DNA from: Escherichia coli | GTDB taxonomy: Bacteria > Pseudomonadota > Gammaproteobacteria > Enterobacterales > Enterobacteriaceae | Assembly (NCBI RefSeq): GCF_003334765.1 | Contig: NZ_QOWT01000093.1 | DNA length: 951 nucleotides | Direction: 5' to 3' (one strand) | Part shown: positions 1-951 of the stretch, piece by piece | Layout: each line of letters begins with the position of its first letter | Numbering within the stretch: position 1 is the stretch's first letter | Position numbers and translations under genes: made by a program | The notes under the pieces: generated by a model | The model's database searches: none | Seen by the model: only the letters and a program-made list of their open reading frames with translations | Told to the model about the DNA's origin: nothing

Positions 1-222
1 CCCCTGCAGCGGGTCATAATAGCGGTGGCGGTTGTAATACAGGCCGGACTCCTCATCATACTGCTGCCCCGGCAGGCGGATAAGCTGCTGCAGCTGATGC
101 GGGTTCTCTTCATTCAGCAGGTTGCCCCATTCATCGTATTCTGCGCACCATTCTGTTGCCCCTTCCGTGCTGATAAGCGCCAGCGGCAGGCCGCGATGGT
201 CGCAGTGGTACAGGTGGATTTT
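1..222 (-). other. RHS repeat-associated core domain (C-terminal end of the Rhs core, immediately before the expected autoproteolytic DPxGL junction)
   Basis: The translation [74 protein letters not shown] has the characteristic shape Y-x-x-D-H-x-G-x-P ... W ... Y-D-x-W-G ... Y-D-x-E-x-G-L-Y-Y-N-R-x-R-Y-Y-D-P-x-x-G-R of the conserved Rhs C-terminal core domain. The domain is cut by the window edge. Confidence 0.75.
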
Positions 223-951
223 TCGCGCCGGCGTGTACACCGGGTCCATCTGGTTTTGCATCTGCTCCACGGTCAGGCCGCACGATGCCAGCCAGCGGCG
301 GCTTTCCTCACTCACCCGGTCAGCCAGGATTTCACTTTCCAGCCGGTCGAGCATCTGCACCAGCACCGGCGGGAACACCACACTGCCACCGTCTTCGCCG
401 CCGGACTGCTGAAGCGCATCCGCCAGGCTGCGGCGCTGCGTTTTCGCCAGCTCACCGGTGGCGGTTTCAACTCTGATGAGTGGCGTGAAGCTCCCCGGCT
501 GATAAATCGTCTGGATGCGGGTTCTGTCGTTCTGTATTGTGGTCAGCCGGTCGCCGTCCCAGCCGTACCAGGTCACTTGCGGTTTCCGTGACAGCGACAT
601 CCAGCCCGTCAGGTCCCGTTCACGCCGCCACACCCGTTTTGCCACCCTGCGGCCCAGCGGGTCGTAAAGATAGCGACTTTCGACCAGCGGCTCTTCATAT
701 TGTGTCCGCGTGTAGTGCACCAGCCGGTGCTGACTGTCGTAATGGTACCGGTGAGTCCGCTCATCATCCGTGCGGATAACCCCTTCCGGGATGAGGTCGG
801 TTTTCTCTGTCAGCCTGCCGTGACGGTCATACCGGTAAAGATAGTGCGCGTCACGGGCGATACGGTTATCCGGCCACATGCTGAGGGTGCTGTCCGGGTG
901 CAGCTCCGGGTCGGGCAGGCGGTTACCTGCCGGGTCTGTGGCATACGGGAT
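1..951 (-). CDS. Rhs family protein, conserved core region (YD-repeat polymorphic toxin, RhsA/B/C-like); partial at both ends, internal fragment
   Basis: Reverse-complement translation in the frame whose codons end at position 1 gives 317 codons without a stop. The product contains YD-repeat motifs ([48 protein letters not shown]) and the Rhs signature [35 protein letters not shown]...[22 protein letters not shown], which I recognise from enterobacterial Rhs cores. GC-rich codon usage fits Rhs cores. No start or stop codon lies in the window, so the true gene ends are outside it. Confidence 0.93.
538..843 (-). other. Block of YD (RHS) repeat motifs within the Rhs core (protein-level repeats, beta-shell region)
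   Basis: Four spaced motifs of the form aromatic-x-Y-D-x-x-G/H-R-L on the minus-strand translation: [12 protein letters not shown] (808..843), [12 protein letters not shown] (718..753), [12 protein letters not shown] (640..675), [12 protein letters not shown] (538..573). This matches the YD-repeat consensus GxxxRYxYDxxGRL. Confidence 0.75.

Follow-up and report, generated by a model that had tools for sequence, protein, structure and literature searches.

The 951-nt stretch of DNA analysed here, which as a whole is called the window, almost certainly codes for the final portion of the shell wall in an Escherichia coli Rhs protein, where the YD motifs would be hairpins of the cocoon. The first-pass annotation had pointed to spaced YD motifs in the minus-strand translation and had taken them for structural repeats of the beta-shell; the observation was confirmed and its interpretation is supported. 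The finding is correct but already known, and nothing in it departs from the established picture. Feulner et al. are reportedly the ones to be credited, as of 1990, with describing YD repeats in E. coli rhs genes, and structures solved since 2013 have shown several times that these repeats serve as hairpins of a cocoon. The significance of the result extends little beyond correct annotation. It may be useful to know that short windows from the distal part of an Rhs core may fail with the Pfam model RHS_repeat, yet hold genuine repeats, and that strings which look like YD motifs are not all one structural unit, since the GWDGD hairpin has another type of turn.

Gene identity and reading frame

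The window belongs to an E. coli Rhs core gene of the rhsA/rhsB type. On the minus strand, frame 0 is free of stop codons across all 951 bases (317 codons, 317 amino acids), and the remaining five frames of the window are all interrupted by stops. The two substitutions with respect to K-12 RhsA (Table 1) are T262K and A265T in window numbering, both conservative. Among 5426 complete E. coli genomes, the best megablast matches showed nucleotide identities of 99.7-99.8% and were annotated as rhsA or rhsB; the window was matched in 3889 of these genomes, where the median copy number was 5. A copy with 100% identity was not found among the 5426 genomes, the best being one of 99.8% in rhsB, with about 2 mismatches. 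K-12 rhsA is 99.7% identical to the window, and the match sits within the gene for the 1377-aa RhsA protein. Both RhsA and RhsB of K-12 have the same reading frame and all six motifs of the window, with essentially no difference. The cores of rhsA and rhsB are too similar for the window alone to be assigned to either locus.

The NCBIfam model RHS_core (NF041261), which has 1261 positions, matched the window through its positions 913-1229 with E 6.9e-206 and 686.7 bits, a score to be read against a whole-protein cut-off of 2000 bits, which is unreachable for a fragment; full-length K-12 RhsA scored 2647 bits. The coding strand has a G+C content of 62% and a GC3 of 75%, which is typical of the G+C-rich rhs core; the C-terminal extension in K-12 has 40%. 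On both strands of the window no promoter-like site, Rfam family or defence-system match was found, and the single terminator-like match was at chance level. A plus-strand ORF at 25..591 (188 aa, GTG start) was considered as a gene and rejected, being antisense to the rhs core and having no family match (PADLOC). It is probably no gene, and its presence is explained by the base composition of the coding strand given above.

It is quite improbable that the window stems from a truncated or orphan remnant of an rhs core, a possibility which would alter only the functional status of the sequence and not the identity of the motifs. Partial and frameshifted core fragments are numerous at rhs loci, two of them being annotated beside K-12 rhsA, and neither end of the gene lies within the window; however, the frame runs uninterrupted through 317 codons, just 2-3 positions differ from full-length rhsA and rhsB, and the best matches are complete genes of 1377 aa and about 1411 aa.

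Repeat motifs and modelled fold

The four motif strings of the minus strand lie exactly where the first-pass annotation had placed them (Table 1). All four had been called YD-type motifs; three of them are YD repeats by sequence, whereas the fourth is a hairpin of another turn type. Two additional elements listed at that time are present, but with ranges drawn 3-6 nt too wide: the 10-aa element had been given as 178..213, which encodes 12 aa, and EYDEWGNLL as 115..144, which encodes 10 aa. A fifth YD-like motif, absent from the earlier list, was found at 916..951. The family consensus retains its DPAGNRL; in the structural model described below it is predicted to form no regular hairpin and to be followed by a long coil (aa 3-36).

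Table 1. Features of the 951-nt window (nucleotide positions of the window; residues in window numbering unless stated otherwise; strands and turns as predicted by the AlphaFold2 model)
Feature	Position	Strand	Description
rhs core, internal piece	1..951	-	corresponds to K-12 RhsA residues 899-1215, with 2 aa differences
Fifth YD-like motif	916..951	-	aa 1-12, at the upstream edge of the window, which truncates the ORF here
YD repeat, motif 1	808..843	-	predicted strand aa 37-41, 5-residue turn D42-R46, strand aa 47-52; upstream-trained HMM i-E 9.8e-5
YD repeat, motif 2	718..753	-	predicted strand aa 65-71, turn D72-R76, strand aa 77-84; PSSM 19.0
YD repeat, motif 3	640..675	-	predicted strand aa 87-96, turn D97-R101, strand aa 102-112; PSSM 10.3
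Atypical hairpin, motif 4 (GWDGD)	538..573	-	predicted strand aa 125-132, 2-residue turn G133-D134, strand aa 135-140
Non-repeat, mostly helical insert	226..459	-	aa 165-242 (about 78 residues); five predicted helices within aa 165-233
10-aa element	184..213	-	predicted hairpin
EYDEWGNLL	115..141	-	predicted hairpin
Pfam RHS domain, PF03527	109..219	-	aa 245-281, E 5.2e-15; holds the hairpins at 184..213 and 115..141
RHS repeat-associated core domain, TIGR03696	4..138	-	aa 272-316, first 42 of 76 model positions

The match to TIGR03696 reached 37.6 bits against a cut-off of 32.5 and stops at the edge of the window, at model position 42 of 76. In motif 2, His replaces the Gly which is usual in the turn.

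For an independent description of the repeats, an HMM and an ungapped PSSM were trained on 19 repeats of RhsA only, all of them upstream of the window. The HMM matched the window at aa 39-51, 63-82, 91-101 and 271-282, and weakly at 308-314. EYDEWGNLL scored only 2.5 with the PSSM, and the HMM match over it (aa 271-282) was weak, with an i-E of 0.038. The element at 184..213 had a PSSM score of -3.8 and no match to the upstream HMM, so that homology with a YD unit is not detectable by profile. Motif 4 was not recognised by any YD profile (PSSM -12.5, no match to the upstream HMM).

Family profiles of the units were also compared with each other by hhalign, in the style of HHrepID. Unit 1 and unit 3 were related with an hhalign probability of 94%, units 1 and 2 with 76%, and units 2 and 3 with 73%; the EYDEWGNLL unit reached 91% with unit 1, and the unit at nt 916-951 about 90% with units 1 and 3. 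Motif 4 reached 7% or less with any unit, the element at 184..213 3% or less, and helical control segments 0.3% or less. A profile scan of RhsA showed a strict period of 20-21 residues from D469 to D721 and a looser spacing beyond; the motifs of the window follow each other irregularly, at 30, 25 and 35 aa. Motifs 1-3 of the window are the degenerate, irregularly spaced distal end of the repeat array.

A search for homologues yielded 134,016 representative sequences (E <= 0.001), of which 67 were aligned for AlphaFold2 prediction of residues 100-1250 of K-12 RhsA, a protein which is 2 residues off the window. The predicted core had a mean pLDDT of 88.4 and a pTM of 0.80. According to DSSP, all 19 upstream repeats (19/19) of the model consist of a strand which ends at the aromatic residue, a 5-residue D-x-x-G-x turn and a return strand. 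The same pattern of strand, 5-residue turn and strand is predicted for motifs 1-3, for the element at 184..213 and for EYDEWGNLL. Motif 4 is modelled as a beta-hairpin too, with its Asp still inside the strand and a turn made up of just G133-D134; it is missed by the YD profiles because of this 2-residue turn and the position of the Asp. The GWDGD hairpin is conserved more strongly than the neighbouring true YD repeats.

When the model was compared with the PDB by Foldseek, the top matches were all solved Rhs cocoons, led by Tse5 (8cp6_B, E 1.2e-88, TM 0.77/0.81) and followed by 7q97, 8qja, 8uy4 and 7pq5, and then by teneurins and TcB-TcC. The RhsA core would thus appear, on the basis of the model, to have the fold of a beta-hairpin spiral cocoon. 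A phmmer search against PDB sequences returned Tse5 (8cp6, E 4e-25), Rhs of S. bongori (8qjb/c/d), RhsA of P. protegens (7q97) and Tse15 (8uxt). In the alignment with Tse5, aa 24-165 of the window correspond to Tse5 residues 863-984, and aa 241-315 to residues 1015-1086. The C-terminal plug of Tse5 comprises residues 1092-1168 (PMC10684867). Judging from this alignment, all motifs of the window should lie within the barrel wall, upstream of the plug, which would start just after the window.

Between the preceding last shell strand (a 14-aa string) and the RHS domain PF03527 lies the helical insert, for which blocks of 10 residues had pLDDT values of 70-92 in the model. All homologues examined, whether close or distant, have an insert of 41-113 aa; in Tse5 the corresponding stretch has about 30 aa, and in Rhs of S. 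bongori about 4. This loop is known to differ in length among Rhs cores (bioRxiv 10.1101/2024.02.26.582050). It is conceivable, but rather unlikely, that the end of the array, i.e., the GWDGD hairpin together with the insert of about 80 residues, is not plain wall but a module specialised for closure or exit in the cocoons of enterobacterial Rhs proteins. Such a module could be a gate, or could provide a surface to which a partner docks.

The modelled cocoon and its relatives

Rhs proteins are carriers of polymorphic toxins, and the following scheme very probably accounts for the motifs of the window. About forty beta-hairpins, many of them with YDxxGRL(I/T), would join side by side into one spiralling sheet, and this sheet, by analogy with the solved structures, should close into a hollow shell that encloses the C-terminal toxin. 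Release of the toxin within the cocoon would follow through cleavage by an aspartyl-protease motif located shortly downstream of the window. In each repeat, the aromatic-x-aromatic sequence would end a strand, D-x-x-G-x would form the turn, and (R/L)(L/I/T) would start the return strand. Motifs 1-3 are such repeats, and motif 4 is a conserved hairpin belonging to that wall; the element at 184..213 and EYDEWGNLL would be the next hairpins after the helical insert.

Published descriptions agree with this scheme. For E. coli the repeat consensus YDxxGRL[I/T] has been quoted, with credit to another reference (PMC10684867). The same work describes that DxxGR forms the turn and that the Tyr faces the cavity, with Trp, His or Phe often substituting for Tyr (PMC10684867), and the YD motif has been regarded as the transition from strand to turn (bioRxiv 10.1101/2024.02.26.582050). 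If the protein of the window behaves as the structures of its homologues suggest, its Asp residues would hydrogen-bond the turns and its Tyr residues would face the cavity, and encapsulation, self-cleavage and delivery of a toxin would likewise be expected.

The window ends with ...YYDPLQG, 6 codons before the first DPxGL of the self-cleavage motif DPxGL-x18/19-DPxGL, which closes the core; for this reason it includes neither the catalytic residues nor the toxin nor the immunity gene, and the N-terminus lies outside it as well. The continuation in K-12 RhsA contains two DPxGL motifs, with D1221 and D1243, 22 residues apart. In Tse15 the catalytic aspartate pair is D1369/D1391 (Tse15 preprint), to which D1221/D1243 of RhsA probably correspond, as judged from the sequences. 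A catalytic aspartate in QQYDEESG inside the window was considered and rejected, since the Tse15 preprint and the sequence of RhsA place both aspartates in the downstream DPxGL motifs. The C-terminus encoded by K-12 rhsA is the Ntox34 domain (PF15606), with yibA just downstream.

The closest solved relative is Tse5 of P. aeruginosa (PDB 8CP6), a pore-forming Rhs toxin of the T6SS with the same cocoon fold, to which the published description of YDxxGRLV hairpins applies. All four motifs of the window align with it, and GWDGDR is identical. The proteins differ in that the identity is just 31%, the toxin domain is another one, and a segment of about 30 aa, between the shell strand that ends at Tse5 984 and the RHS domain, stands in place of the helical insert of about 78 aa in E. 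coli RhsA. The shells of TcB-TcC and the eukaryotic teneurins are spiral cocoons of YD-repeat beta-hairpins too (Foldseek E 1e-24 to 1e-41), but are far more distant, with identities of 10-15% and TM values of 0.15-0.55; the Tc shells are built from two proteins, and the teneurins are adhesion receptors with extra domains.

An older view would make the repeats surface-exposed units for the binding of ligands or carbohydrates in a filamentous cell-surface protein. The YD-repeat domain was linked with carbohydrate binding in the older literature (PMC2935791), and a review of 2015 still has Rhs proteins as 'large filamentous proteins' (PMC4436062). All solved structures of Rhs, TcB-TcC and teneurins are closed beta-cocoons, and the RhsA model matches solved cocoons with TM 0.77-0.81, which makes this view very improbable.

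Repeats at the protein and DNA levels

The motifs recur far more often than would be expected by chance. In the translation, [YWF]x[YWF]D is found 4 times, compared with 0.21 expected, and this number was reached in 0 of 20000 residue shuffles. The upstream-trained HMM gave 21.1 bits in the coding frame; none of the five remaining frames exceeded -0.3 bits, and 1000 shuffles yielded at most 6.8. The model TIGR01643 (YD_repeat_2x) gave 31.4 bits in two stretches, against a curated cut-off of 15.8; the best stretch was aa 61-83, at motif 2. Pfam RHS_repeat (PF05593) was marginal in the window, with i-E values of 0.066 and 0.84 (0.31 and 0.55 in the context of the full-length protein); with the upstream repeats of RhsA the same model gave ten matches at i-E 1e-9 to 7e-4 and an eleventh at 0.0047. 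The first-pass annotation had named a scan with RHS-repeat HMMs as a check, to be counted against the repeats if it brought no significant matches. Significant matches were obtained, because TIGR01643 exceeds its cut-off; the outcome would be borderline with PF05593 alone.

The residues of the motifs are also near-invariant in 19 homologues with 33-45% identity over the window: D42 and G45 were found in 19/19, D72 in 18/19, Y96, D97, R101 and R102 each in 19/19, G130 and W131 in 19/19, and D132 in 18/19. Comparison of the 317 aa with themselves gave no significant repeat. The best ungapped BLOSUM62 diagonal scored 32, compared with 38 for the 95th percentile of 300 shuffles, and internal repeats were not significant by blastp of the 317 aa against themselves. 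De novo detection fails because the repeats here are too small in number and have diverged too far to be recognised without the help of an external profile.

It is extremely improbable that the motifs are a chance recurrence of Tyr-Asp in a protein rich in Tyr, Asp and Arg, as the self-comparison at shuffle level and the marginal PF05593 matches might suggest; the motif counts, the upstream profile, the TIGR01643 score, the near-invariance in distant homologues and a modelled hairpin geometry identical to that of the upstream repeats speak against it.

The earlier statement that the repeats exist at the protein level, with no tandem repeat in the DNA, was borne out by TRF and self-blastn. TRF on the window reported just two rows, both trivial (19 and 27 nt). 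Self-blastn with 7-nt words gave no direct repeat with E < 1, the sole off-diagonal rows below this threshold being weak inverted ones (E 0.007 and 0.05). Recurrence in the DNA is confined to a 15-nt patch (661-675, 736-750 and 832-846; 73-87% identity), which recurs because it consists of exactly the R-Y-x-Y-D codons for conserved amino acids. Pairwise nucleotide identities of the four 36-nt units were 31-58%, with an average of 47%, compared with 28.5% for random in-frame 36-mers; the excess matches the expectation from shared codons for a few conserved residues.

Although the patch occurs three times and the units are more alike than random 36-mers, there is next to no probability that the periodicity is a nucleotide tandem repeat or a recent internal duplication, with a possible role as substrate for slippage or recombination, since the TRF rows are trivial, self-blastn shows no direct repeat, the patch is a set of R-Y-x-Y-D codons and the unit lengths are unequal (30, 25 and 35 codons). 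The periodicity is a constraint of the protein fold, and in the DNA just the codons of conserved residues recur. Behaviour as a "rearrangement hot spot" comes from whole rhs copies, with their median of 5 per genome, which recombine genome-wide, and not from these motifs.
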